From a phage, in assembly GCA_036252695.1 (NCBI GenBank), contig GCA_036252695.1_4122.1: DNA of 64,000 nucleotides, one strand, 5' to 3'. Positions 6,460 through 48,736 of this stretch are shown piece after piece. Within the stretch, counting starts at the first letter, position 1; every line of letters begins with the position of its first letter. The notes under the pieces are model-generated. The model was not told the origin of the DNA. It made no database searches and saw only the letters and a program-made list of their open reading frames with translations. The position numbers were made by a program, and so were the translations under genes.

Positions 6460-6723
6460 ATGAATATTCAAGATAGATTACAATTACTGTACACACTTGA
6501 ACAGGCTGCTTATGATCTTGTTCGAAAAATCTCAGATGAACTACCTAAAGGAACTAAAGTTCGTGTACGTGAGATGAATTATTTTTCTGGAGTAATTGAA
6601 GAACAAGTACTAACAGTGAATAAAGTAACATACTATGAATCTGAGTTGTCTATTCAGTGTGAATCTGATGATGGATTAATATCATATTATGGAACTGATG
6701 TAGATATAGAGGTAATAAAATGA
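6460..6723 (+). CDS. hypothetical protein, small paralog family
   Basis: Internal ATG at 6460 just after the upstream stop; LPKGTKVRVREMNYF motif like other small paralogs. Confidence 0.45.
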   Translation: MNIQDRLQLLYTLEQAAYDLVRKISDELPKGTKVRVREMNYFSGVIEEQVLTVNKVTYYESELSIQCESDDGLISYYGTDVDIEVIK

Positions 6724-7862
6724 CCCTTTTGCAAATATATGAAGATTTAATGCACTTATGTAATACAAACGATGCATTCTTTTATGTGGATCATAAAAGT
6801 CCTGCTGGTGGCACGTATCGTGTATTCAGTTATCGTCTAGCATCATACACTGATTTCATGCAACCAAATGCGTTGGAAACCCGTGGCTCTATGTGGGAAA
6901 TTGATGAAGAAGGTGAAATGATACGTTGTGCAGCACGTACAATGAAAAAGTTCTTCAATGCTTACGAGAATCCTGCTACAATGTTCCCTGCTAACACCAC
7001 ATGCGATGACATTGCGGTAGTGATGCCTAAGTTGGATGGTTCGATTATCAGTACTTACCGTGATAATGATGGTGAGATTCGTTGTAAATCACATACTGCA
7101 TTGTATTCTGACCATGCGATTAACAGTACTCGACTTATTAACGAGAACCAGAATTTGTATCAGTACATCGACGAAGCGGAACGTTTAGGTTACACAGTTA
7201 ATATGGAGTATACAAGCCCAGAGTACCGAATTGTATTACCATATCAGGTAGAACAACTGTTTGTACTGAACGTTCGTCATCGTGTGAGTGGTGAGTTGCT
7301 ATGTGGTAAAGCACTACGTGATAAGTTTCCATGTCTTGCACAGTACAGTACTAATATGACTGGAAAAGATATTCATCACACTTTTCCGGTACGAAATACC
7401 TTCCGTGAAAGCGTGGAGGAAGTTCATAAAATGCTTGATATTGAGGGTTTTGTGTGCATCCTAAATAATGGGACAATGTGTAAAATAAAGACTGACTGGT
7501 ACAGTTCATTACATCTTACAAAAGATAGTATTATTATTGATTCTCATTTATATGAAGCAGTATTAAATGGTTCAAGTGATGATTTAAAACAATTGTTCAG
7601 TACTGATGAATATGCTATGCAAAAGATATTAAGAATGGAACAATTGGTATTTTCGTGCTATAATGCATTACAAGATGAAGTAGAAAGCTTCGTCAAGGAA
7701 CACAAGCACTTGGAGCGAAAGGAATTCGCAATGAAGGTTCAGGAGTGTTTAACTAATGAACTGAATCGTCAGGGCTTGGCCTTTGCAATGTATAACAATA
7801 AGAAAGTTGATTACAAAGAGACTCTTATAAAATACATGAAAATTGTACTAAAGGATTTTTAG
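6720..7862 (+). CDS. rnlA: RNA ligase 1 (T4 gp63-like)
   Basis: 380-aa protein colinear with T4 Rnl1 as recalled: FFYVDHKS..GGTYRVFSY, ETRGSMWEI and the nucleotidyl-lysine motif MPKLDGS. Confidence 0.8.
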   Translation: MTLLQIYEDLMHLCNTNDAFFYVDHKSPAGGTYRVFSYRLASYTDFMQPNALETRGSMWEIDEEGEMIRCAARTMKKFFNAYENPATMFPANTTCDDIAVVMPKLDGSIISTYRDNDGEIRCKSHTALYSDHAINSTRLINENQNLYQYIDEAERLGYTVNMEYTSPEYRIVLPYQVEQLFVLNVRHRVSGELLCGKALRDKFPCLAQYSTNMTGKDIHHTFPVRNTFRESVEEVHKMLDIEGFVCILNNGTMCKIKTDWYSSLHLTKDSIIIDSHLYEAVLNGSSDDLKQLFSTDEYAMQKILRMEQLVFSCYNALQDEVESFVKEHKHLERKEFAMKVQECLTNELNRQGLAFAMYNNKKVDYKETLIKYMKIVLKDF

Positions 7863-8685: not shown

Positions 8686-9618
8686 ATGCCAACTATCACA
8701 CTAACAGTTGGATTGCCTGGGTGTGGTAAAACTACATGGGCAGTGCAAGAGATTAAAAAAGCCAAATCCAAGACTATCAACATCAACCGTGATGATATTC
8801 GTGAATCTATGGCTGGGTCACATGATGCTTACAAATTCAACGATGCTAATGAGCAGTACGTAGATAATTTACAGTTCAGTGCAGCAAATTCAGCAGCAGA
8901 GAATGGTTGGAACATCATAGTATCCGATACAAACCTTAAACCACATTTCCGTAATCTCTGGAAAGTATGGGCTACAGATAATGGTTATGATTACAAAGAA
9001 AAGAACTTCTATGATGATTTTGTACCTAATGAAGACCGTGGTGCAGATGTTCATGAATTCTTTAAGATTAAAGAGTTCGTAAAACTTTGTAAGAAATATA
9101 ACCTCCAGCGTGAGCGTTCAGTACCAGATGATATCATTGACAAAATGGCAGATACGTACTATTATAGTAAAGCATTACACATTGGTTACTATGGTAATTC
9201 ACGCGAAGCTGCTATCATCGTTGATATCGATGGAACTCTTGCTCATAAATGGGGTCGTAATCCTTACGATGAAAGTACTGTTCTTCAGGATACACCTGAT
9301 GAAGAAGTTATTTTGTCTATTATCGCTGAAGCAGTTTTTCATAAACGCAAGATTATCGTCATGAGTGGGCGTACTGAAGGGTGTCGTGCGGATACCGAAC
9401 AGTGGCTTAAGAATTGGGGTGTTCCTTACGATGCATTGTTTATGCGAGATATCGATGATAAACGTCCTGATGATGTTGTAAAATTCGACCTGTACATGAA
9501 AAATGTGGTTGATCATTACGATGTTAAAAAGGTATATGATGACCGCGATCAAGTTGTATTCATGTGGCGTAAGCTACTTGGGTTGAAAGTTTTCCAAGTG
9601 GCTGAAGGAAATTTCTAA
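8686..9618 (+). CDS. pseT: polynucleotide 5'-kinase / 3'-phosphatase
   Basis: N-terminal Walker A (GLPGCGKTT) kinase module and C-terminal DxDGT (VDIDGTLA) HAD-type phosphatase module; colinear with T4 Pnk; GAGGA RBS. Confidence 0.85.
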   Translation: MPTITLTVGLPGCGKTTWAVQEIKKAKSKTININRDDIRESMAGSHDAYKFNDANEQYVDNLQFSAANSAAENGWNIIVSDTNLKPHFRNLWKVWATDNGYDYKEKNFYDDFVPNEDRGADVHEFFKIKEFVKLCKKYNLQRERSVPDDIIDKMADTYYYSKALHIGYYGNSREAAIIVDIDGTLAHKWGRNPYDESTVLQDTPDEEVILSIIAEAVFHKRKIIVMSGRTEGCRADTEQWLKNWGVPYDALFMRDIDDKRPDDVVKFDLYMKNVVDHYDVKKVYDDRDQVVFMWRKLLGLKVFQVAEGNF

Positions 9619-14069: not shown

Positions 14070-14297
14070 ATGAAAGTAATTCAAGTTATGGTAGAAAAAT
14101 ACCAAACTGAAGATGGTCGTATTTTTGATTCAGCTAAACAAGCTGAACACCATGAACGTATTATTTCTGGTGCACGTAAAGTATGTCCTACATGTAATGG
14201 AACACAACAAGTACCGTCAGAAGATTACCGCAGCTTTTATGCTTGTCCACACTGTGATGGGAAAGGCTACGTAGAAAAACAAGAGGTATGGAAATGA
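14070..14297 (+). CDS. small zinc-ribbon protein
   Basis: 75 aa with CPTC ... CPHC cysteine pairs. Confidence 0.45.
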   Translation: MKVIQVMVEKYQTEDGRIFDSAKQAEHHERIISGARKVCPTCNGTQQVPSEDYRSFYACPHCDGKGYVEKQEVWK

Positions 14298-14707
14298 AAT
14301 TGTATTGCTTAACTAATATGTACTGCCAAGGTGTCCAAGCTGGTATTCAAGCATTCCATGCTGGTGTTAAACTAATTAAAGAATATGAAGGTACTGCTTT
14401 CAGTACTATTATTGATGAATGGTACTATGAACACGAAACTATTGTAGTACTAAATGCTGGTGGACATGATAAGTTAAATTCTTATTATAACAACCTTAGC
14501 AAACAGGGAAAAGTTCCGTTTGCCAAATTCAATGAAGCTGGATTGAATGATGCTATTACCTGTGTAGCAGTACTGTGTACGTCTGAAATGATTGAAGACA
14601 TGGCTGTTATGCGTATGAATCTTCCTGCTGGTGATCAACTAATGCAAGTAAAATATGGTGCATTGTTTGACACATTAAAAGCAATCAGTACAATGAGGAC
14701 TATTTGA
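14288..14707 (+). CDS. hypothetical protein
   Basis: 139-aa ORF with stop-start overlap. Confidence 0.5.
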   Translation: MEMKLYCLTNMYCQGVQAGIQAFHAGVKLIKEYEGTAFSTIIDEWYYEHETIVVLNAGGHDKLNSYYNNLSKQGKVPFAKFNEAGLNDAITCVAVLCTSEMIEDMAVMRMNLPAGDQLMQVKYGALFDTLKAISTMRTI

Positions 14708-17355: not shown

Positions 17356-18147
17356 ATGAAATTTGTTGTAACATCTGACGTACACGGTGGAACTGATTAC
17401 CTCCATAGCGGTGATTACAGTGATGTAGTACTGATCATTGCTGGTGACTTTGATGAAGTGAAACGTAGTCGTTATCGTACTGGGATCGAAGAACTGTGTA
17501 AGCAGTTCTATAAGGTAGTACTGGTTCCAGGAAATCACGAATACTACGGTTCCAATATCCAAAAGACGCATCAAGTACTGTCCGATATGCAAGATGAGAT
17601 TCCTAATTTTATCTTTTTGCAAAACAAATTTGTATGGCTGGATGGAGTACTGCTTGTTGGTAGTACTCTGTGGACAGACTTCGATAAAGGTAATTCTTTG
17701 ACGAAGTTTGATGCTCGTCAGAAGATGAACGATTACAAACATATCCGTCATGGAACAACATCAGAGCCTTGGCGTAAGAAACTGACACCTGATGATACTG
17801 AGTTTATGCATCACAAAGATAAACAATTTATCAAAAATTCTATTGACACAGTTCGCTTTATGCATGATAATGATTTCAAGGTCATCGTGATTACTCATCA
17901 CGCACCAAGTTATCAAAGTGTTTCACCAAAATATAAAAATGATTCACTAAATGGTTGTTACTGTTCCGATATGGATCAGTACATTGAAGATTTGGGTGCT
18001 GATGTTTGGATTCATGGTCATGTTCATAGTAGCTTTGACTACCACATTGGTAAGACACGTATCATTTGTAATCCACGAGGCTATGAATCGTATAGTGGAG
18101 CTTGTGAGAATTTTGATTACAATCCTAAATTTGTATTTGAAATTTAA
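17356..18147 (+). CDS. metallophosphoesterase
   Basis: SDVHGG, AGDFD, GNHEYY and GHVHSS motifs; ATG at 17356 after GGAGG. Confidence 0.7.
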   Translation: MKFVVTSDVHGGTDYLHSGDYSDVVLIIAGDFDEVKRSRYRTGIEELCKQFYKVVLVPGNHEYYGSNIQKTHQVLSDMQDEIPNFIFLQNKFVWLDGVLLVGSTLWTDFDKGNSLTKFDARQKMNDYKHIRHGTTSEPWRKKLTPDDTEFMHHKDKQFIKNSIDTVRFMHDNDFKVIVITHHAPSYQSVSPKYKNDSLNGCYCSDMDQYIEDLGADVWIHGHVHSSFDYHIGKTRIICNPRGYESYSGACENFDYNPKFVFEI

Positions 18148-18159
18148 TGTGAGGATACA

Positions 18160-18543
18160 GTGTCATTAATTTATTTTGAACTGCCAGAATATACCAATTA
18201 TCCAAGCCGAGTTATTTGCTCAGTTTATAGTAATGCATATCATCACTTGTTAGTGAATAGTAATAAAGCTGTGCATTATTATCGAAATAAAGAACCACGT
18301 ACATTAAAGAATCGTTATGGGTTTGACCCAACTAACACTGAAGTTGAACTCTGTGATCTGTTCGGGGAAGTAATGGTGGTATTGAAACGAGATATTCATC
18401 TTTTCCATACATACAAACTTAATCAGTACTTTATGGAAACACTGTCTATACGTTCCCATGCTCCGATGATTAAAGTTGATTTGAATTATGTTGATGATAA
18501 ATTGAAATATGATTTCATTAATTCACTTGTTTATTTGGAGTAA
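18160..18543 (+). CDS. hypothetical protein
   Basis: 127-aa ORF. Confidence 0.5.
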   Translation: MSLIYFELPEYTNYPSRVICSVYSNAYHHLLVNSNKAVHYYRNKEPRTLKNRYGFDPTNTEVELCDLFGEVMVVLKRDIHLFHTYKLNQYFMETLSIRSHAPMIKVDLNYVDDKLKYDFINSLVYLE

Positions 18544-18544
18544 T

Positions 18545-18949
18545 ATGAATATACGTTCAGTACGAATATTTTCATTTGTTGATATGAATAAAAAACACTC
18601 TTATGTGTTTGAAAATGTCAATAAGTTAAATCCTCATACGGCAAAAATGATTGAAACCATGAAGAACTTGAGTTTACATATAGAAGTTTACTATCTTCAT
18701 GACGATTCTGTTTATGTATATGATGATGGATGGTATGACGGTGTGTTTTATGATGACATTAGCACTACTGCTGATTACTACTTTCTAGTGAGTAATCCAC
18801 TATTCAGTACTAAAACTTTGTTTGACATTACCGATACAAGCGTGTATGATACAAGTCATGTTGAGTTACTTAAGTTTGATCCAGTATTATTCAACAAAGA
18901 GACGGCGTATTGGATGACTGATTTCTTTTCAAATATTCCAGTAAAATAG
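18545..18949 (+). CDS. hypothetical protein
   Basis: ATG at 18545 directly after the upstream stop; reading frame of track ORF 18509..18949. Confidence 0.5.
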   Translation: MNIRSVRIFSFVDMNKKHSYVFENVNKLNPHTAKMIETMKNLSLHIEVYYLHDDSVYVYDDGWYDGVFYDDISTTADYYFLVSNPLFSTKTLFDITDTSVYDTSHVELLKFDPVLFNKETAYWMTDFFSNIPVK

Positions 18950-18951
18950 TT

Positions 18952-18979
18952 TGGACATTTTAAATCTTAGTGATATAAT
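18952..18979 (+). promoter_or_regulatory. sigma70-like early promoter
   Basis: tggaca, 16-nt spacer, TG-a-tataat, about 35 nt upstream of clpP. Confidence 0.55.
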
Positions 18980-19013
18980 ACTCACAACAACGAAATAATA
19001 GAGGAAATTAATA

Positions 19014-19709
19014 ATGGTTGAACAATTCATGTTTGGTGGTTATGCTAATGGCGAAGTACGTAACATTTCTATTCCTTACGTAGTTGAGAAAGTTAATGGT
19101 TCAGAACGTACATATGATCTAGCATCTCGTATGATGCAAGACCGTATCATTTTCCTTGATACTGATTTCAATGATCAAATGGCACATATCATCAAACAAC
19201 AATTGGTATGGTTAGACTCACAAGGTGATTCCCCTATTACATTCTACATTAGTTCACCGGGTGGTTCAGTACACGCAGGTTTGGGTATTGCAGATGTTGC
19301 TAAGTCTTGTATTTCGCCAATTCGCACTGTAGTAATGGGCTATGCAGCATCAATGGGTTGCTATACACAATCTGTTATTGGGACTAAAGGTTTCCGTTTA
19401 GGTGGTAAACGCTCATACTTCATGTGTCACCAAGTAAGTTCTGGTACACAAGGTCTAATTACAGACCAGAAGATTTCCCTACAACATTCTGATGCACTGA
19501 ATACATTGTTGACCAAAGAAATTGCAGAAGCTGTAGGTGTATCACATGAACAATTACTAAAAGATGCTGACCGCGATTTGTGGTTAAATGCAGAAGAAGC
19601 ACTTGAATATGGTGAACATGGTTTCATTGATGGTATTATTCTTGGTCCACGTAACGAAGAAGGCAAGTACTTAGTTAAGCGTCGCGGTGGTGTAGAAGAG
19701 TGGGTGTAA
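19014..19709 (+). CDS. clpP: ClpP-family serine protease
   Basis: SSPGG, GYAASMG (Ser), MCHQV (His) and DADRD (Asp) in ClpP order; colinear with bacterial ClpP. Confidence 0.85.
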   Translation: MVEQFMFGGYANGEVRNISIPYVVEKVNGSERTYDLASRMMQDRIIFLDTDFNDQMAHIIKQQLVWLDSQGDSPITFYISSPGGSVHAGLGIADVAKSCISPIRTVVMGYAASMGCYTQSVIGTKGFRLGGKRSYFMCHQVSSGTQGLITDQKISLQHSDALNTLLTKEIAEAVGVSHEQLLKDADRDLWLNAEEALEYGEHGFIDGIILGPRNEEGKYLVKRRGGVEEWV

Positions 19710-19757
19710 GATAGATTTTGATGCCTCAATATGGGGCATCATCTTTGTGGAGATTAT

Positions 19758-20048
19758 ATGAAAGTACTAGTACGTAATAATACGGAAGTAGCAAATGTAT
19801 TAGAAGATTCCGATTTTATTAATGTTGCGTTCGATCAAATTAGTGCAGTAGCACTTGAATTAAAAAATGTAGATGAATCTGAGCGTGTGCTGAATGGTTT
19901 TGCAATTGTACTTGAATTAATGAATGAAGTACTAATTAAAAAGAACATTAATCCAGTTGATGCGGTTCAACATGCAGAAGCTGTGCGTAAAGAACACGGT
20001 ACATTCTCTGACAAAAAATACATTCAAACTGATGAGGTAAAAGAATAA
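19758..20048 (+). CDS. hypothetical protein
   Basis: ATG at 19758 after GGAG; acidic ~96-aa product. Confidence 0.5.
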   Translation: MKVLVRNNTEVANVLEDSDFINVAFDQISAVALELKNVDESERVLNGFAIVLELMNEVLIKKNINPVDAVQHAEAVRKEHGTFSDKKYIQTDEVKE

Positions 20049-20049
20049 T

Positions 20050-20496
20050 ATGTCCAATGCACAATATAAAGATGGTTATGACGCATACAAAGCAAAAGTA
20101 GTTCTAAGTGCTGAACAGCTAAAAATGCAGCATCCATTATATCGTCAGGGCTATCGTGCAGCACAAGCAGAAGCAATGAAGAAAAATAATGTAACTTTCC
20201 CTACTACACTATATGATATTCCAAAACGTCCACACATTTTTAAAGCTGAATGGACTGATATTATGGCAGCGACAAAGCGTCCACGCTTTGCTAAATTACA
20301 CACCGATGAAGGTCGCTGGTTGCTAATGGGGATTATGAAAGCAGTTGAGAATCAATCTCATAAGATTGTTCGTTATAAAGATGTTGTTGCTATGGTTGAT
20401 AAAGCATTTGACCTTGTACTTCAATATGGTTATGATGAAGGTGTTCTAACTGTTTCTGATTGTGAAAAATATCAGTACACCCCATATCAAAAATAA
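20050..20496 (+). CDS. hypothetical protein
   Basis: 148-aa ORF. Confidence 0.5.
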   Translation: MSNAQYKDGYDAYKAKVVLSAEQLKMQHPLYRQGYRAAQAEAMKKNNVTFPTTLYDIPKRPHIFKAEWTDIMAATKRPRFAKLHTDEGRWLLMGIMKAVENQSHKIVRYKDVVAMVDKAFDLVLQYGYDEGVLTVSDCEKYQYTPYQK

Positions 20497-20506
20497 TATT
20501 GTGAAA

Positions 20507-20536
20507 AGGAATCCTATCATGGGATTCCTATTTTTA
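20507..20536 (+). terminator. rho-independent terminator
   Basis: Perfect 8-bp stem (aggaatcc / ggattcct) followed by a T-run. Confidence 0.55.
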
Positions 20537-20622
20537 TTGCTGTATATCAATTTTCCATTGATCATATTTTGATCTATATGAGCTAAATACCCAAGGAATC
20601 ATTGTTACTAGGGTAGGTGAAT

Positions 20623-21171
20623 ATGCAGCAATATAATTTAACTGAAGAACAAAGTGATATTTTTTACCATCATATGTTTTTAATTGATGAATTTGCTTTA
20701 AAAATTAATTCTGAAGCAATTGATATATTGAAGAAATGGTATAGTTGTTATAATAAAAACAAAAAGTGGTATTGGTTTAATAGAAATATAAAATCATTTC
20801 TAAAAACAATCACATACACTGATAGTATTGAGTTAATACATAGTTCTATTGGATATAGTTACTTAACTAAACACAACAGTACTATGATGTTATCAGGGTT
20901 TAAAGTTGAAAGAATTTCCAAGTTAACAGGTTTGTCATTAGAAACAATTCTATATGATATTGAGAAAATTTGGAAAACTATAGAATTAATGCATAAAAAT
21001 ATGTCATTCATATATAGAAATTATGATATATTCACTGATGTACGACAATATCATAATAAACCGTATGTATTGGATGAAAAGTACTATAATCATATGGAAG
21101 TTTGTTCTAAACTCGTTGATGATTGGAATCTAGAGGGACATAATGAAATACACACACCTAAGTATAGATGA
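20623..21171 (+). CDS. hypothetical protein
   Basis: ATG at 20623; ~182 aa. Confidence 0.5.
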   Translation: MQQYNLTEEQSDIFYHHMFLIDEFALKINSEAIDILKKWYSCYNKNKKWYWFNRNIKSFLKTITYTDSIELIHSSIGYSYLTKHNSTMMLSGFKVERISKLTGLSLETILYDIEKIWKTIELMHKNMSFIYRNYDIFTDVRQYHNKPYVLDEKYYNHMEVCSKLVDDWNLEGHNEIHTPKYR

Positions 21172-22385: not shown

Positions 22386-22763
22386 TTAACCAGGGAGGTT
22401 ACAATAATACAAATCCCAAGGGTGATATTTCATCGCACCAGTACTCAATTTAATTTTATGAAACTGGAATGATTCGGCAAATGCACTATCGTCAATCTTA
22501 ATACAAAAAGTGTTTTTGGCTAGAGTTGGTGCAATTTCCAATGCTGTTTTAGATGCATCTAATCTAATTTTATCTTTATCATAACTAGTGATAGTTACAA
22601 AACGATAAACATTAAAATCAGTATCAATGAGATCGTAAACACAACTAGAACGTTGATTAAAGATGTTCAAGTTATATTTCAATTCACCGTTTATATTAGC
22701 TGCGGTTACACAAAACCCGCCGATATTGAATGGTAGTTTACCTTGTGCTGCGATAGCTTTCAT
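22386..22763 (-). CDS. hypothetical protein (only minus-strand gene in the window)
   Basis: 125-aa ORF on the opposite strand with AAGGAAA RBS (minus strand); bidirectional terminator on one side, AT-rich promoter region on the other. Confidence 0.55.
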   Translation of the reverse strand: MKAIAAQGKLPFNIGGFCVTAANINGELKYNLNIFNQRSSCVYDLIDTDFNVYRFVTITSYDKDKIRLDASKTALEIAPTLAKNTFCIKIDDSAFAESFQFHKIKLSTGAMKYHPWDLYYCNLPG

Positions 22764-24545: not shown

Positions 24546-24746
24546 ATGATGGCATACACAATTTATGAATGGGTTTTGAGTTTTTTTATAGTTTTTTCTA
24601 TTGTTGTAATTTATAACAATGCTAAATGCTTATATAGGGACTTGAAATCCAATGGTTATCACAAAGATAATAATTTTATGTATGCCTATCATATTGGAAT
24701 CATTCTGTTATTATCAATATATTTAATTGTTTTTTATAAGGATTGA
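24546..24746 (+). CDS. small membrane protein
   Basis: 66 aa with two hydrophobic helices. Confidence 0.45.
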   Translation: MMAYTIYEWVLSFFIVFSIVVIYNNAKCLYRDLKSNGYHKDNNFMYAYHIGIILLLSIYLIVFYKD

Positions 24747-24748
24747 AT

Positions 24749-25501
24749 ATGATATCAGAAAAATTTATAAGCAATGAAGGTAAAAAGCGATTACTGATTA
24801 TATCAGGTGCAGGACTTTCTGTTGAAAGTGGTATGGAACCTTTTCGATTTGATGATGGTTTGTGGGATACATTTAAAATTAATGATGTATGTAACATTGC
24901 TAGTTTAACTACAAAATATCATGTTGTTCATTCTTTCTATAATACATTACGTGTAAAATTGGGACAATGCGAACCAAATGCAATGCATTATTTTATAAAA
25001 TCGTTAGAAGATCAATATGGTGATTGCTTCCTTCATATGACTTCTAACATGGACGATCTTTATACTCGTATTGGTGGTCATGAGCTTAAACTTCATGGAA
25101 ACTTGTGTGAAGTTATTGAAAATTATAGTATCAATTCTGATGATTATAATGTTATTAACTGCGGATACGAACCATACATACCAAAACATGATGTTTTTGC
25201 TAAACCAAATGTAGTAATGATTGGAGAATATCATCGTTATGTTGATGGTATACGCTTACCAATTTACGAAGAACGAAATAATGTGTTGAAATCTCTTAAT
25301 GAAAATGATACAGTTATTGTAATTGGTAGTAGCGATACAGTACTGGTATGGTCGAGATTAGCAGCAGCATTACCATGTTATAGTGTTAATGTTAACATTC
25401 GTAAAAATGATAATGATTTTTTGTTTAATGAAAAAGTTATCAAGCCAGCAACCAAAGCAATACCACATCTAGAGACTATAATTAAGGAACGTATGAAATG
25501 A
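24749..25501 (+). CDS. Sir2-family NAD-dependent deacylase (CobB-type sirtuin)
   Basis: ISGAGLSVESGMEPFRFDDGLW NAD-binding motif; PNAMH..HMTSNMDDL (TQNID-like) and catalytic LHG colinear with E. coli CobB as recalled; ATG at 24749 after AAGGA. Confidence 0.75.
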   Translation: MISEKFISNEGKKRLLIISGAGLSVESGMEPFRFDDGLWDTFKINDVCNIASLTTKYHVVHSFYNTLRVKLGQCEPNAMHYFIKSLEDQYGDCFLHMTSNMDDLYTRIGGHELKLHGNLCEVIENYSINSDDYNVINCGYEPYIPKHDVFAKPNVVMIGEYHRYVDGIRLPIYEERNNVLKSLNENDTVIVIGSSDTVLVWSRLAAALPCYSVNVNIRKNDNDFLFNEKVIKPATKAIPHLETIIKERMK

Positions 25502-26049
25502 GTGTTAAAGAAGTTCCCTTTGGTGAATATGGCTCACGTGCAAATTTTGTATTTTGTTATTTCTTTGCAAGAAAATGTAACCCTTACAAAAACTATGAGT
25601 TGAATGATATACCAGAAGTAAATTTAGTTTTACTACAATTACGATGGGATGGTCTTCTTGGTGGATGTGGTGGAACCGTAGAAAGTACTGATATCTCACT
25701 AGAAGATGCGTTGCGTCGTGAAGTTCAAGAAGAAATGGATTACAATATTTTTGTTTCCCATCTTCGACCACTCAAAACTTTTGAAATTTACCCAGGTGCA
25801 AACAGTCACAGTTTTAGCTATGAAGTAACCTATGACGAGTTGAAACACATTAGAGATGGATACACTAATGCTAAACATGCAAGTGCAGAAGTTGCTGGTG
25901 TAAATTTATGTCATATTTCTCGTTATTCTAAGGGACAAAATCGAGAAGCGGGATATAATAATCTTATGACACAGAACTTCATCGGTACAGCAAGACAAGA
26001 ATTGGAGTATCTGGTTCAAAAAGAAAACTTACTAATTAGTTATCTATAG
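25498..26049 (+). CDS. Nudix-like hydrolase
   Basis: Nudix-box-like GGTVEST..LRREVQEEMDY segment (spacing slightly non-canonical); ATGA overlap with the sirtuin gene. Confidence 0.5.
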   Translation: MSVKEVPFGEYGSRANFVFCYFFARKCNPYKNYELNDIPEVNLVLLQLRWDGLLGGCGGTVESTDISLEDALRREVQEEMDYNIFVSHLRPLKTFEIYPGANSHSFSYEVTYDELKHIRDGYTNAKHASAEVAGVNLCHISRYSKGQNREAGYNNLMTQNFIGTARQELEYLVQKENLLISYL

Positions 26050-26738: not shown

Positions 26739-28178
26739 ATGAAAAAATATACAATTGACACAAATGTACTACTATCTGACCCTAATGCATCTATTGCTTT
26801 TGATGGTGCTGCAATCATTCTACCATTTACAGTACTGGAAGAATTGGATTCAATTAAGAGTCGTAATGTAGATGTTTCACGCGATGCTCGTGTTGCTATT
26901 CGTAACATTGAAGCAATTATTGCAGATGCATCACATGATGAGATTAGTAGTACTGGTGTTAATATTGCTGATGTTCATACCAATATGAATCCTGATAGCA
27001 AATTGTTTGTTATTACAAACGAAGAAGCTGAAGCACTAATTCGTACTAAAGGTTCAGAAGAGAAAGTTCAAACCCTTCTCAAAAGCACAGTACCTGATGA
27101 TAAAATCATTCTGGTAGCTTTAGCAACAGAATCAGTACTGGTAACTCGTGATATCAACATGCGTATCAAAGCACTAAGTTATGGTGTCGAGGTACAAGAT
27201 TATCGCCATGATATTGTTATTGGTGATAGTGATTTGATTCACATTGGTCAACACCATTTGGAAATTAATTTTTGGGAAGTATATAGCAACTTAACCAATA
27301 CTAATATTCAATCCGAACAAGTTGGTCGTCGTTTGTATCATTACATTTCTAAAAGCTTGATTGAACATTTGCTTCCACAAAATCTATGCATCGGTGATTA
27401 TCTATATGATGATGCTGACGTATTATTTGTGTACGAAGGACAATCAGCAATTGAGGAAGATGATGGAACACTAACACCAGAAGATATTTTGGTATTCCAA
27501 GACATTGGACAATCAGTGGCTTTACGTGCTAAAGTATGGGATATTAAAGCAAAGAATATCCAACAAGCACTCGCCATCAACAGTATTCTCGATCCTGATG
27601 TACATCTAACAGTACTGCTAGGTTCTGCTGGTACTGGTAAAACACTAATTACAATTGCTACTGCATTAGAATTAGTACTGGAAAAACGTAAATACGACCG
27701 AATCATCTTCTCTAAAACTCAAGACTCACAGTTTGAAGATATTGGTTTCTTGCCAGGTTCAGAAGCAGAAAAAGTGATTCCATTCTGTGGAGCCGCGATT
27801 GATGCGTTAGAGTTTCTTCATAAAGATGATGCCAACCCACAAGGTAGTATTGAAGAGATTATGAAACGTAATGTTATTCAATTTAAAGCACTAAACTTTG
27901 TACGTGGACGTTCATTCACCAACACTATTCTAGTAGTTGATGAATTCCAAAACATTACACCTGCACAAGCAAAAACCATCTTGACACGAGCAGGGTTAAA
28001 CTGTAAAGTAGTAATTATGGGTAACTTGAGTCAGATTGACAGTAAGTTTATTAGTCCTGTTAACAGTGGTTTGACATATGTAACTGAGAAGTTTAAAGAC
28101 TGGGCAGGTTGTCGTGTCATCGAACTAGAAGGTGTTGTTCGTTCACCACTGGCTGAATTTGCTGAAGAAAATATGTAA
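26739..28178 (+). CDS. phoH: PIN-PhoH (PhoH2-like) ATPase
   Basis: N-terminal PIN-like region (YTIDTNVLL) fused to a PhoH-type NTPase with Walker A GSAGTGKT and DEFQN Walker B. Confidence 0.75.
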   Translation: MKKYTIDTNVLLSDPNASIAFDGAAIILPFTVLEELDSIKSRNVDVSRDARVAIRNIEAIIADASHDEISSTGVNIADVHTNMNPDSKLFVITNEEAEALIRTKGSEEKVQTLLKSTVPDDKIILVALATESVLVTRDINMRIKALSYGVEVQDYRHDIVIGDSDLIHIGQHHLEINFWEVYSNLTNTNIQSEQVGRRLYHYISKSLIEHLLPQNLCIGDYLYDDADVLFVYEGQSAIEEDDGTLTPEDILVFQDIGQSVALRAKVWDIKAKNIQQALAINSILDPDVHLTVLLGSAGTGKTLITIATALELVLEKRKYDRIIFSKTQDSQFEDIGFLPGSEAEKVIPFCGAAIDALEFLHKDDANPQGSIEEIMKRNVIQFKALNFVRGRSFTNTILVVDEFQNITPAQAKTILTRAGLNCKVVIMGNLSQIDSKFISPVNSGLTYVTEKFKDWAGCRVIELEGVVRSPLAEFAEENM

Positions 28179-30443: not shown

Positions 30444-31415
30444 ATGAAAACTAAAATTATTTCTGAACAAAAAATTGGCAATACTACAGTACTGAATCTT
30501 GAAGTTCAAGGTCTTAGTAATGTTCGTTCTCTTACGGTTTGTACTCAGAGAGATGATTTGACTGATTTCTATAGCTCAGAATACATGTCAGAAGAACCTT
30601 GGGATATGGGATGGTTGGACGGTAGTAGTTATATCAGTTCACGTTATAGTTTTGGTTCTCATGAAAATATTGAACAATTAAAAAATGAGTATATTAAACT
30701 CAGTGATACTATTGAAATGAAAGAAGAAGATTGTGTAGAACTTTTCATTTTTGAATTCGATGCCGGAAATGGTAATTCATTACTAGTAAGTAATATTGAA
30801 GAACATTTAATGTATCATGAAATTGAAGATGTAGATTTTGAAAGTATTAAAAATGTTGTTCATATGGTTGGTGGTAGTATTACTGATGATTCAGATATCG
30901 GTCATAATATTTCACTGTGCTTAATTTCTCATCCAAAAACTCGTGGTTTTAAAGTTCCACAAGATGAAACTTACGTGTCTGAAACTGCTGATGAAGGAAT
31001 TTATCCTTGGAATGATTATGTAGAATACTATGGTCATTTCTGTTCTGATACAAAAGAACTGAAAAAAGGCGAACAATATTTTGATATGTTCCGTGCTGCA
31101 CAGCGTTTAGTACTGAATAATACTGAACTATTTCCTGATCGCGGCGAAGAAAATATGATTGATATTATCTTCAAGAACTATGATTATGTACAGAACATTC
31201 CTGATAATGTACATTTGGAATATGTTCACGGTTCTTCAAACAAATTCTATAATATTGAATTGAATGCTCCAGTGTGTGAAGTAATTATTGAGTACGGTGC
31301 TATTGGTAAAACCAGTACTACAGATGGTGAAGAATTCGAAACTATTGAAGAAGCACGTAAGTTCTTCGAGAAGAAAGTAATTTCTAAAATTAAAAGTGGT
31401 TATAGCCCAAAATGA
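30444..31415 (+). CDS. WGR-domain protein
   Basis: C-terminal ~80 aa (SSNKFYNIEL..YGAIGKT...EEARKFFEKK...GY) matches the WGR pattern; N-terminal 240 aa unassigned. Confidence 0.55.
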   Translation: MKTKIISEQKIGNTTVLNLEVQGLSNVRSLTVCTQRDDLTDFYSSEYMSEEPWDMGWLDGSSYISSRYSFGSHENIEQLKNEYIKLSDTIEMKEEDCVELFIFEFDAGNGNSLLVSNIEEHLMYHEIEDVDFESIKNVVHMVGGSITDDSDIGHNISLCLISHPKTRGFKVPQDETYVSETADEGIYPWNDYVEYYGHFCSDTKELKKGEQYFDMFRAAQRLVLNNTELFPDRGEENMIDIIFKNYDYVQNIPDNVHLEYVHGSSNKFYNIELNAPVCEVIIEYGAIGKTSTTDGEEFETIEEARKFFEKKVISKIKSGYSPK

Positions 31416-45631: not shown

Positions 45632-46033
45632 ATGACTACAGTTGATGATATCTATAGCACTATACGCAATATGAGTACAGATAGAAAAGTATTTGGCGAT
45701 AAAGAAAAATCTAAGTGTTATGGTATTGATTCTTTTGATATAATTTCTTATGAGTACAATACAAGTGGAAATAGTTCACTGAATATCGTCTGTCCTCGTG
45801 ATCCAGAAAATAATTTTATGTATGTTGAAATTAATAATGATGGAATGTTTTTTACAAAAGTTTTCAAAGGTGGAATTAATTACGAACCTATTGAATGTAT
45901 GAATGAAGAAACTTTCTTTCAAGAAGATACAATTATCAATTTAGGTTTTAGTTTTGATGATTATAAAACATTAGAACATGACTTTAATCGTTATTATAAT
46001 GGTTTCTTAAAGGAGTTAACAATTTATCTATGA
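45632..46033 (+). CDS. hypothetical protein
   Basis: 133-aa ORF. Confidence 0.5.
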   Translation: MTTVDDIYSTIRNMSTDRKVFGDKEKSKCYGIDSFDIISYEYNTSGNSSLNIVCPRDPENNFMYVEINNDGMFFTKVFKGGINYEPIECMNEETFFQEDTIINLGFSFDDYKTLEHDFNRYYNGFLKELTIYL

Positions 46034-48306
46034 ATAACCAATATATTGAACAAACAATAGTGAAACACTTGGCTGGGTCACAAGCCTACGGAACCAGTAC
46101 ACCTGAAAGTGATACTGATTATCGTGGTATTTTTCTTGCTAATAAAGAATTTATTCTTACACCCTTCTATAAGGTCAAAGAGGTAGCTGATAAAAGCGAA
46201 GAAGATACTAAATTCTATGAGTTGAATCAGTATTTAAAATTATACACTGAAGCTAACCCTAATATTCTTGAATCACTTTGGGTTGAACCTGAACACATTG
46301 TTGAAAGTACTGAAATTTATGACTATCTTCGTTCATTTAACCAAAAACTTCTTAGTTCCAAGATTGCATTTTCATATACTGGTTATGCATATAATCAGAT
46401 TAAGCGTATGACAAATCATCACGGTTGGATGGATAAAGAGCATATTGCTGAACGTAAACTAAATGAAATTTTAGAAGAACATCCAGTCGATGAGGTTCTT
46501 GCGTGGATGTATGATTCATTTCCACAATATCTTGTTGAACGTTTAGATACATCGAACTTACATCCATTTAATGCTAAAAAGATTGATTTTGAAAAATATA
46601 TGCGTGATACGTCATTGCAGTTAGTTTCGAAAAATCCATTAAAGCAATATCATTTTGTAAGATTAGTGCATAACTACACTACTGATAAAATTCTAGATCG
46701 TGATTTCAATTTATTGAATTTTAATAATGGCTATGAACTAATTCATTACGGAGAAAACATTTTTGCGATTATTAAAAATCCGAATGAAAGTACTATCAAT
46801 GCTGATGGTTCACTACGTTACTTCAATAAAGAACGTACTTCGGAAGAATTAAAAGTTCGTCCTGAACTCATTGTAAAATTCAATGAAAAGGAATACAAAG
46901 AAAATAGTGAGAACCGTAAGAGTTATCACAAATGGAAGCAGAACCGTAATGCCAAACGTGCTATTCTTGAATCACACCACGGTTATGACTGTTATAGTTT
47001 TGATACTGAATTCTTAACTAAAGATGGTTGGAAGTTATTTGATGATATTACTGAAAACGATCTATTAGCTACTTTTGACAAAAATCACAAAGTTGAATAT
47101 CAGAAATACACTGAACGTTTTGATAATTTATATAATGGCAATCTATACCATTTCACTGGTCATCACCAAGATACTTTAGTGACTGCTAACCACCGAATGT
47201 ATGTTAAGGATTATGCACGAAATCAACAAAAAGATATGTCTGATTGGAAATTTGTAGAAGCAGCACAATTAAAAGAAACATATAAAATTTTGAATACAAT
47301 ATCCCCAATAACTAAAGAACACAAAGATAAAAAAAGTCCAATTGACTACATGGATATCAAAGTTTATCTTCAACTCATGGGATGGTTTATTTCAGATGGG
47401 TGCATAAATTTCAGGGATGGTAAAGTAAAATCTTTATATATTTCCCAGTCAAAAACTAGTCAAGGTATGCGTTGTGCTTTATCAAAATACAAAAAATCTG
47501 GTCAATTAATGTTTAATGAATACATTATAGAAAAGAAAGATTATCAAGCTAATGACGAATCAAGATATACATTCCCAAGTGAAGTAGCTGAAGCATTATA
47601 TAATGATTGTGGACATGGTTCATATAATAAACGAATTCCAAATTGGGTATTTGATTTAACAAAACGTAAAATGGATTTCCTTCTGAAAGGTTTGTTACAA
47701 GGGGATGGAACAAAACGAAATTTAGTTAATGACAATGATACATTTGTATATTATACTGCCAATTCATTATTAGCTGATGATGTTCAAAAACTAGCATTAC
47801 TATGTGGTTATGAAACATCAAAATGGGGACCATACACAAACGAAACCAATTTTGGTAGTGTTGATATATATCAAATTCATATCAATATGAAACCCAAAAC
47901 CGAAAAAATGAACATGAAACAAAATCTTGAAAAAATTCCAGTTACTAATTACAGAACTGTGTGTTTTTCTGTTCCCAACGGAACACTCATTACTCGTAGA
48001 AATGGAAAAACCGCATTACATGGAAATTGCAAACATGCTATGCATACAATCAGGCTGCTGAATACAGCCGAGGAAGCACTTGAAACTGGTATCATCCAAG
48101 TTCACCGACCGGATGCTGCTATGTTGATGGACATTCGTAACGGGAAGTGGTTGTATCAAGAAGTTATGGATTATTTCAACGAAAAGGTTGACTACATCCG
48201 AAATGTGGCGTATCATAAAACTCATCTACCGAAGCGACCGAACATAAAGTTGGCGACAAAGGTACTATTAGATATCCGTGAAATGCAATGGTACAGTAAA
48301 AAATAA
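46030..48306 (+). CDS. Pol-beta-superfamily nucleotidyltransferase interrupted by an intein-like insertion
   Basis: N-terminal LAGSQAYGTSTPESDTDYRG (GS...SDxD) nucleotidyltransferase motif; a central ~346 aa carries intein/homing-endonuclease hallmarks. Confidence 0.55.
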   Translation: MNNQYIEQTIVKHLAGSQAYGTSTPESDTDYRGIFLANKEFILTPFYKVKEVADKSEEDTKFYELNQYLKLYTEANPNILESLWVEPEHIVESTEIYDYLRSFNQKLLSSKIAFSYTGYAYNQIKRMTNHHGWMDKEHIAERKLNEILEEHPVDEVLAWMYDSFPQYLVERLDTSNLHPFNAKKIDFEKYMRDTSLQLVSKNPLKQYHFVRLVHNYTTDKILDRDFNLLNFNNGYELIHYGENIFAIIKNPNESTINADGSLRYFNKERTSEELKVRPELIVKFNEKEYKENSENRKSYHKWKQNRNAKRAILESHHGYDCYSFDTEFLTKDGWKLFDDITENDLLATFDKNHKVEYQKYTERFDNLYNGNLYHFTGHHQDTLVTANHRMYVKDYARNQQKDMSDWKFVEAAQLKETYKILNTISPITKEHKDKKSPIDYMDIKVYLQLMGWFISDGCINFRDGKVKSLYISQSKTSQGMRCALSKYKKSGQLMFNEYIIEKKDYQANDESRYTFPSEVAEALYNDCGHGSYNKRIPNWVFDLTKRKMDFLLKGLLQGDGTKRNLVNDNDTFVYYTANSLLADDVQKLALLCGYETSKWGPYTNETNFGSVDIYQIHINMKPKTEKMNMKQNLEKIPVTNYRTVCFSVPNGTLITRRNGKTALHGNCKHAMHTIRLLNTAEEALETGIIQVHRPDAAMLMDIRNGKWLYQEVMDYFNEKVDYIRNVAYHKTHLPKRPNIKLATKVLLDIREMQWYSKK
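46990..48027 (+). mobile_element. intein-like element with LAGLIDADG homing endonuclease
   Basis: Begins CYSFDTEFLTKDGW (block A-like), then TANH (block B-like), two LAGLIDADG-like motifs (LMGWFISDGC and LKGLLQGDGT), ends ..ALHGN followed by Cys. Confidence 0.45.
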
Positions 48307-48316
48307 GAGGATTGTT

Positions 48317-48736
48317 ATGCTAAACGAACAAATCAAAGACGCACTACGTGTACTGAATCTCGAAGTTAACCGCATCCAGAAAAGTACTGACCGTTATAAA
48401 GTAATGCATGAAATCAAACAAGAATTGGAATCTATTAATAAGGGAGAGTGGTGGTATCTTCAGCCCGAATATCAAACTCGTGAATTAAACGATGTTGAAA
48501 AAGAAATTGTCAAATTCATCACTACTCGTTATTGTGATACATCAGAGAATGATGTATCAGCGAACTTCAATCTTACTAAATTGGAAGTCGAAGAAAAATT
48601 CCATTTTGATTGGCTTGATTGGATTGAAATGGTAATGGAACTAGAAGAAAAATTCAATGTTGAAGTTGATGAAAAGTTCGAGAATAATGAAACTAAGCTG
48701 TATGAACTAGTAGAACATATTCAAAAAATGTTGTAA
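48317..48736 (+). CDS. hypothetical protein
   Basis: Internal ATG of track ORF 48278..48736 after AGAGGA; acidic product. Confidence 0.5.
   Translation: MLNEQIKDALRVLNLEVNRIQKSTDRYKVMHEIKQELESINKGEWWYLQPEYQTRELNDVEKEIVKFITTRYCDTSENDVSANFNLTKLEVEEKFHFDWLDWIEMVMELEEKFNVEVDEKFENNETKLYELVEHIQKML

Follow-up and report, generated by a model that had tools for sequence, protein, structure and literature searches.

The stretch of phage DNA analysed here, referred to below as the window, comprises 64,000 nucleotides of contig GCA_036252695.1_4122.1 (GenBank assembly GCA_036252695.1) and carries, at 19014-19709 on the plus strand, the gene clpP for a ClpP-family serine peptidase. The open reading frame (ORF) begins with ATG and encodes a protein of 231 amino acids, the stop codon being included in the coordinates, and direct reading of the sequence places an AGAGGA ribosome-binding site at 19000-19005 (plus strand), 8 nt 5' of the start codon. 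A sequence-only reading of the window had portrayed this ClpP as an enzyme without a partner ATPase nearby, which would have to borrow host unfoldases or act in proheads. Here, we describe the locus and its relatives together with the partner genes carried by related genomes, and we argue that the phage ClpP probably forms the peptidase core of a Clp machine whose motor the phage itself encodes.

The clpP Locus and Its Closest Relatives

A megablast search with positions 18000-21000 returned 22 near-full-length matches, all of them to Asteriusvirus jumbo coliphages (G17, BF17, Sharanji, PBECO4, 121Q and phAPEC6 among them) and at up to 99.8% identity. The window comes from a phage of this genus, in the 121Q/PBECO4/G17 group. 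Over a longer range, it has its best match in G17 and Sharanji (98.6% identity across 93% of 24 kb), and it is collinear, with a few indels, with positions 93026-156491 of the related phage EC22.5-2. The annotated ClpPs of 121Q, slurp01 and G17 are 100% identical to the window protein, and those of Klebsiella phages K64-1 and KP13-7, of GAP32 and Munch, and of Yersinia phage fHe-Yen9-04 are 66-75% identical; the window clpP is a genuine, ordinary gene that is annotated already in relatives. In a collection of 5.8 billion proteins, approximately 67 clusters at 57% identity or more compose a tight ClpP clade, many of them on contigs of about 350 kb, and beneath this clade lie nine intermediate clusters at 48-53% identity, followed by homologues at about 45% that have the usual length of 193-200 amino acids. 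Genes of the clpP region encode an RNA ligase, a polynucleotide kinase, a DNA ligase, two metallophosphoesterases, a dCMP deaminase, Sir2, Nudix, PIN-PhoH and WGR proteins, and NrdD/NrdG; judged by this content, the region is early or metabolic, not a structural module.

Catalytic, Gating and Clade-Specific Features of the Phage ClpP

The description of the protein as a full-length ClpP was borne out by its match to the Pfam family CLP_protease (PF00574; E 4.2e-41, 141.3 bits against a cut-off of 20.2), which spans profile positions 2-179 of 182, and by matches to more than 100 solved ClpP sequences (best E 1.4e-36). In a scan of NCBIfam, the protein scores highest on ClpP models, in each case under their curated cut-offs, and because its scores fall under the equivalog cut-offs it is placed, by sequence, in a divergent clade and not among the bacterial housekeeping orthologs.

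The phage ClpP was aligned with 15 and then with 51 homologues, together with E. coli ClpP. An intact Ser/His/Asp context had been claimed for the protein, and the alignment agrees: Ser113 (codon tca, 19350-19352, in an AASMG motif), His139 (cac, 19428-19430) and Asp188 (gat, 19575-19577, in a DRD motif), all encoded on the plus strand and aligned to E. coli Ser97, His122 and Asp171, are invariant in 52 homologues, as are the oxyanion residues G84 and M114 (E. coli G68 and M98). Arg187, which corresponds to E. coli Arg170 and immediately precedes the catalytic aspartate, is invariant or nearly so, and the same is true of the N-terminal gating residues P21, V23, E25, E31, R32 and D35, the equivalents of E. 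coli P4, V6, E8, E14, R15 and D18. The gate contacts made by E8 and by E14-R15 in E. coli ClpP have been described in a cryo-EM study of ClpAP (bioRxiv 10.1101/820209). The handle region aligns without gaps with that of bacterial ClpP.

An AlphaFold2 model built from 52 sequences (mean pLDDT 92, pTM 0.85) confines disorder to residues 1-11 and includes a long helix at residues 149-174 that corresponds to the handle (helix E). When this model was compared with the PDB by Foldseek, the top matches were all chains of ClpP tetradecamers, with predicted agreement at a target-normalised TM of 0.91-0.96 and an rmsd of 1.0-1.9 A. Residues 1-19 constitute a variable N-terminal leader and residues 20-209 the ClpP core; the propeptide of E. 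coli ClpP is 14 residues long. Three elements are specific to the clade, namely this leader, a 3-residue insert ahead of the last core strand and a C-terminal tail at residues 210-231 (LGPRNEEGKYLVKRRGGVEEWV; 19641-19706, plus strand), delimited by alignment and model. This tail of 20-22 residues is conserved across the Rak2-like clade as G.RN..G....RR.G..W[VI], is absent from cellular ClpPs, and is modelled at a pLDDT of 92-96 as two short predicted strands.

With its triad intact, the phage ClpP is apparently catalytically competent, and it may assemble as a double heptamer; the Arg170/Asp171 pair is conserved. Across a clade whose members share 57-100% identity, the triad, the oxyanion hole and Arg170/Asp171 do not vary, as would be expected were catalysis under selection.

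Partner Genes in Related Genomes

That the window holds no ClpX/ClpA-like unfoldase proved correct. In phmmer searches of every six-frame ORF of 40 amino acids or longer, with E. coli ClpX, ClpA, Lon and ClpS and a phage ClpA as queries, no ClpX-, ClpA- or Lon-like ORF was detected and ClpP alone was returned at E <= 10; similarly, Pfam searches of the ten largest or unassigned ORFs of the window disclosed only a PhoH-type P-loop ATPase and an RlaP nucleotidyltransferase and no Clp/Lon unfoldase. One candidate, the 758-aa ORF at 46030-48306, equals E. coli ClpA in length, yet by Pfam it is no AAA+ protein.

Relatives of the phage tell more. When all ORFs of EC22.5-2 (351,992 bp) were compared with E. 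coli ClpP, ClpX, ClpA, Lon and ClpS, the check proposed in the sequence-only reading, for AAA+ partners elsewhere in the genome, came out positive: the ORF at 194475-196787 matches E. coli ClpA (E 6.6e-139) and lies about 82 kb downstream of clpP, about 37 kb past the position at which the window ends. Besides this ClpA homologue, no ClpX-like or Lon-like gene was found in EC22.5-2 (phmmer, E <= 10). The impression of an orphan ClpP thus arose from a view limited to 64 kb, when the whole genome measures about 350 kb. The phage ClpA, of 761 amino acids as against 758 in E. coli, aligns end to end with its E. coli counterpart at 42% identity and possesses the Pfam domains Clp_N, AAA, AAA_lid_9, AAA_2 and ClpB_D2-small; the ClpB middle domain is absent, and D1 and D2 each retain intact Walker A and B motifs. 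At the position of E. coli I617-G618-L619, where E. coli has SIGL, the docking loop of the phage ClpA reads SIGM, and the loops of orthologues read SIGV (Muenster), SLGM (CBB) and SIGF (PAC2). The gene stands alone, on the opposite strand, within the tail/structural module. A ClpA is annotated in slurp01, SP27, G17 and phAPEC6 (gp246c), and all close relatives examined carry a full-length ClpA homologue some 82 kb downstream of clpP.

A third component may be supplied by a ClpS-like ORF of 180 amino acids, located about 167 kb downstream of clpP and annotated as a Clp adaptor by several depositors, whose product has an extra N-terminal region of 75 residues. By tblastn, 70 phage records contain ClpP homologues at 60% identity or more and 71 contain ClpA homologues; the ClpS-like gene is present in 72 records, all Rak2-like, and the three share the host genera Escherichia, Klebsiella, Salmonella, Erwinia, Yersinia, Serratia, Cronobacter, Pectobacterium and Xanthomonas. 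Together, clpP, clpA and the clpS-like gene are a dispersed core set of the Rak2-like jumbo phages. Beyond these, both clpP and clpA are present in less closely related jumbo phages (PA5oct-like phages and Agrobacterium phage Atu_ph07).

Several of these genes have been noted in the literature. For Atu_ph07, Attai et al. (2018) listed ClpP, ClpA and ClpS alongside further Clp proteins, and they observed that ClpA is kept in most Rak2-like phages (PMC6102473), and Iyer et al. (2021) considered ClpP the most prominent of the patchily distributed, probably host-directed peptidases of jumbo phages, with mention also of phage ClpS, ClpA and ClpX (PMC7824862); in both papers the mentions come without experiments. 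Our search of the searchable library found no experimental study of a phage-encoded ClpP or ClpA, the genome papers on Sharanji and fEgEco12 do not discuss Clp, and the mentions of clpP in PhageExpressionAtlas refer to host genes.

The Presumed ClpA-ClpP Interface

In the E. coli ClpAP cryo-EM study, 12 ClpP residues line the pocket that receives the IGL docking loop of ClpA, and the C-terminal strand of ClpP forms part of this pocket (bioRxiv 10.1101/820209). Eight of these 12 residues are kept or conservatively replaced in the phage ClpP; A52 has become S, and F82, L114 and Y60 are changed. The clade-specific C-terminal tail starts exactly at the pocket-forming C-terminal strand, and on the other side of the interface the glycine of the docking loop is followed by M-S-G in the phage ClpA and by L-I-H in E. 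coli. The changes in pocket and loop fit a co-adaptation of a private ClpA-ClpP pair, as far as residue comparisons can suggest it, and the tail may have a role in the choice of partner.

Promoter-Like Sites and a Downstream Hairpin

A sigma-70-type promoter-like site, TGGACA-16-TATAAT with a TG extended -10 element (gTGaTATAAT), lies upstream of clpP at 18952-18979 on the plus strand; it matches consensus at 11 of 12 positions, and its -10 element ends 35 nt before the start codon. In a related 352-kb genome (OR845138.1), clpA has a promoter-like site of the same kind, TAGACA-16-(TG)-TATAAT, at 194434-194461, and the clpP and clpA sites, although 82 kb apart, have in common xGACA, a 16-nt spacer and the GTGATATAAT core. 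Across the 352 kb of that genome, only nine sites fit the stringent pattern T[TGA]GAC[AT]-N13-15-TGnTATAAT, all of them on the plus strand, and clpP and clpA each follow one of the nine; TGnTATAAT alone is found there 77 times on the plus strand versus 18 on the minus strand, where about 26 per strand would be expected. A similar site, TTGACA-16-TG-TACAAT, lies 5' of clpP in Klebsiella phage K64-1. The promoter-like site is not conserved in GAP32 or Munch, in which clpP directly adjoins the upstream gene, and promoter-like sites across the clpP region are not commoner than in shuffled sequences. Of the strong early promoter proposed earlier, then, the sigma-70-like site with its extended -10 element is present, while its early use is something we can only infer; the paired sites would be consistent with early, co-ordinated expression of clpP and clpA by host RNA polymerase.

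Downstream, the 48-nt gap that follows the clpP stop codon contains a hairpin with a 10-bp stem and then a weak T-run (19719-19741, plus strand), which may act as a leaky terminator or serve to stabilise the RNA. In G17 this hairpin bears no terminator annotation, and the next annotated terminator corresponds to 20507-20529 of the window.

A Proposed Phage-Encoded ClpAP Machine

The reading that we favour, with a probability of roughly 0.72, is that the phage ClpP constitutes the competent peptidase core of a phage-encoded ClpAP machine equipped with a ClpS-like adaptor, and that the motor of this machine is the phage's own ClpA. According to this proposal, host RNA polymerase would transcribe clpP and clpA from the two extended -10 sites, ClpP would build a double heptameric ring, and ClpA hexamers would insert their I-G-M loops into the apical pockets and open the N-terminal gate. 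Unfolded substrates would then be passed by ClpA into the ClpP chamber, with the ClpS-like protein picking or redirecting them. The machine would work in the infected cytoplasm and not in capsid maturation, and it would likely degrade host proteins, turn over phage proteins, or maintain proteostasis under a very large biosynthetic load.

A number of observations weigh against this proposal. The equivalog and subfamily scores of the phage ClpP are low, at 151.6 bits on TIGR00493 (cut-off 308.6) and 155.2 bits on PRK00277 (cut-off 249). Within the docking pocket, the phage ClpP has S in place of F82, G in place of L114 and T in place of Y60; of 29 clade members, 22 have N or S at the first position, 26 have G at the second and 22 have T at the third. 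The ClpA of Salmonella phage Munch (MK268344.1) has a docking loop, SMNM, that is devoid of glycine, the sole exception among the orthologues examined. The ClpS-like match is weak (Pfam ClpS 24.6 bits, cut-off 23), and its N-degron pocket is conserved in part: of the E. coli ClpS residues concerned, D35 and T38 have kept equivalents in the phage protein, while other residues stand in for D36, M40 and H66. The three genes do not form an operon, clpA and the clpS-like gene lying 82 and 167 kb from clpP. Mass spectrometry of CBB virions lists the ClpP homologue, through one peptide at 4.5% coverage (PMC5259590). Finally, the presence of ClpA in the window's own phage is presumed from relatives, because the closest public match, at 98.6% over 93% of a 24-kb stretch, is not the same genome.

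For the M-N-M loop of Munch, a quirk of sequencing, relaxation of the motif and lost docking are all conceivable.

The phage ClpP and ClpA may further be an insulated, orthogonal protease, in which the interface changes block cross-talk with host ClpX, ClpA and ClpP and the divergent ClpS-like adaptor could steer the machine to host defence or housekeeping proteins; from the sequences alone, we offer this extension tentatively and consider it more doubtful than not.

Alternative Explanations

The alternative that survives best, although we judge it unlikely, holds that the phage ClpP mainly uses host ClpX or ClpA, or co-assembles with host ClpP, thereby re-tuning host proteolysis, and that the phage ClpA is a separate chaperone or remodeller. 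The N-terminal gating motif through which ClpP communicates with unfoldases is invariant, two-thirds of the pocket lining (the 8 of 12 residues described above) is conserved or conservatively replaced, and clpP and clpA are unlinked, all of which a borrowed host motor would accommodate; Iyer et al. likewise suggested that phage ClpP and ClpS target host proteins, with ClpS acting via host ClpAP (PMC7824862). Set against these points, a phage ClpA with a docking loop is kept wherever ClpP is kept, and two pocket positions that touch the IGL loop in E. coli ClpAP show clade-wide substitutions, N/S for F82 and G for L114. Identity to E. coli ClpP is only 35%, which makes mixed host/phage rings doubtful. 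Use of host unfoldases is, moreover, compatible with the operation of a phage-encoded ClpAP machine.

A second alternative casts the phage ClpP as a decoy or regulator and not a working protease, one that sequesters host or phage unfoldases or caps host ClpP and so shields phage proteins. The start of the clade-specific tail at the docking pocket, the altered pocket chemistry and the scores under the ClpP equivalog cut-offs would suit such a role, whereas the clade, over its whole range of identities, shows no variation in the triad, the oxyanion hole or the Arg170/Asp171 pair, and we consider a decoy very improbable.

The third alternative is a prohead (head-maturation) or virion-associated protease. 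Its appeal comes from annotation: the best PHROG for the phage ClpP is phrog_94, 'head maturation protease' (E 4.6e-44), a mixture of ClpP-like proteins that has no curated threshold, and the ClpP orthologue carries that name in the RefSeq records NC_025447.1 (121Q) and NC_027364.1 (PBECO4) as well as in several PHROG-based annotations. The single CBB peptide points in the same direction. On NF045542, the model for ClpP-related head maturation proteases, the phage ClpP nevertheless reaches just 51.3 bits against a cut-off of 120, with far higher scores on ClpP models, and clpP lies in the nucleotide-metabolism/early region, distant from the portal, scaffold and capsid genes. In phAPEC6, which is 98.6% identical to the window at the clpP locus, gp227c is a Peptidase_S77 protease of the T4 gp21 type (E 1e-20) whose gene adjoins those of the scaffold protein gp226c and the Gp23-type capsid protein gp225c (E 1e-89). 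The phAPEC6 virion proteome of 62 proteins includes gp225c, gp226c and gp227c but neither ClpP (gp353c) nor ClpA (gp246c) (PMC7247149), and in the main text of the RaK2 report, where Clp goes unmentioned, a gp21-type protease and an SSB are the only virion proteins named as unexpected (PMC3622015). Because a separate Peptidase_S77 prohead protease stands beside the capsid gene, the 'head maturation protease' label on the ClpP orthologue is probably an annotation-transfer error from PHROG 94, prompted by the shared superfamily and catalytic Ser/His core. Given the NF045542 score, the gene setting, the S77 protease, the virion lists so far as they have been published in these sources, and the retention of an axial gating loop typical of unfoldase-dependent ClpPs, we reject this reading as the least probable of the three.

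The earlier inference that the enzyme would have to borrow host unfoldases or act in proheads is, for the most part, not borne out: relatives encode ClpA, a ClpS-like protein and a separate S77 protease, and ClpP is missing from the phAPEC6 virion list and not reported for RaK2.

Other Genes of the Window

The sequence-only reading had also counted two further peptidase-like genes in the window, which we could not recover: Pfam searches of 65 other ORFs (E <= 0.001) and of 10 large ones (E <= 0.01) found no peptidase family, and the G17 annotation names none. The likely source of the claim is a PTH2 peptidyl-tRNA hydrolase (14288-14707) and a lysozyme/LysM protein (57904-58863).

The 758-aa ORF at 46030-48306 (plus strand) encodes an RlaP-family nucleotidyltransferase, a family of RNA-repair pathways, with a LAGLIDADG_3 domain at residues 551-601. 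The RlaP-type orthologue of G17 has only 410 amino acids, and window positions 46992-48317 are without counterpart in EC22.5-2; the insert resembles an intein or a homing-endonuclease fusion restricted to the isolate from which the window derives. Nearby, G17 (MK327931.1) has at 258075-261402 two tail-fibre-like genes, G17_00414 and G17_00415, that the window does not have near 48300, and the site by the nucleotidyltransferase gene is a variable insertion hotspot.

Genes with functions in RNA repair and translation are also present, encoding RNA ligase A, a polynucleotide kinase/phosphatase, PTH2, an S30AE hibernation factor, a CCA-adding/poly(A) polymerase-type enzyme and the cyclic-phosphate-processing domains cREC_REC and 2H-SAK. 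By ORF length and gene order in G17, this set is placed at 6720-7862, 8686-9618, 14288-14707, 58881-59213 and 60813-61925, the cREC_REC and 2H-SAK domains not having been located. The combination suggests a tRNA-repair counter-defence module.

Several other genes merit mention. A fusion of a PIN domain with a PhoH ATPase is encoded at 26739-28178 (plus strand), and its phAPEC6 counterpart, gp341c, was detected in virions at 31% coverage (PMC7247149), which is unexpected for a PhoH-like protein. The ORF at 22386-22763, which follows a terminator annotated in G17, is the only convincing minus-strand gene of that part of the window. It is probably the counterpart of phAPEC6 gp347, a virion protein of 14.1 kDa detected at 75% coverage (PMC7247149), in which case a structural gene is embedded in the early/metabolic region. 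At 24743-26049 and 30444-31415 (plus strand), genes for a Sir2-like NAD-dependent deacylase, a NUDIX hydrolase and a WGR-domain protein lie close by each other, and this group may be tied to NAD or ADP-ribose metabolism or to counter-defence.

Comparison with Known Systems

The significance of the locus lies in the conservation of a ClpP-ClpA-ClpS set across a clade of jumbo phages; if the set does serve in the degradation of host or defence proteins, or is insulated from the host machinery, it would represent a new layer of phage takeover. It might also furnish orthogonal degradation parts for synthetic biology; both prospects are speculative. The analysis also corrects both the impression of an orphan ClpP and the label 'head maturation protease' in the RefSeq records of 121Q and PBECO4, which is probably wrong.

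The ClpP-like head-maturation proteases (NF045542, PHROG 94) belong to the same superfamily as the phage ClpP and share its Ser/His core. Unlike the phage ClpP, however, they are encoded between portal and capsid genes, are often fused to scaffold proteins, and are without unfoldase-dependent gating; the clpP of the window misses the NF045542 cut-off, occupies an early/metabolic region, and coexists with a T4 gp21-type protease. The T4 gp21 prohead core protease (Peptidase_S77) is the enzyme that carries out capsid maturation in this phage group, as phAPEC6 gp227c. It is unrelated to the phage ClpP in fold and sequence, and its gene falls outside the window, at a distance of about 120 kb by the coordinates of phAPEC6.

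With the bacterial ClpPs (MEROPS S14), exemplified by those of E. coli and S. aureus, the phage ClpP has in common the domain, the fold (TM 0.93-0.96 to solved tetradecamers), the core length, the triad, the oxyanion residues, the gating loop and the Arg170/Asp171 pair. Its identity is about 35% with E. coli ClpP and about 45% with its nearest cellular homologues, from which it differs by the C-terminal tail, the 3-aa insert and the pocket changes, and whereas bacterial clpP and clpX are adjacent, the phage partner genes are scattered. The closest parallels are the Clp sets of the Rak2-like and other jumbo phages (121Q, PBECO4, slurp01, G17, RaK2/K64-1, GAP32 and CBB); the window represents one more isolate of the genus and differs from these in nothing essential.

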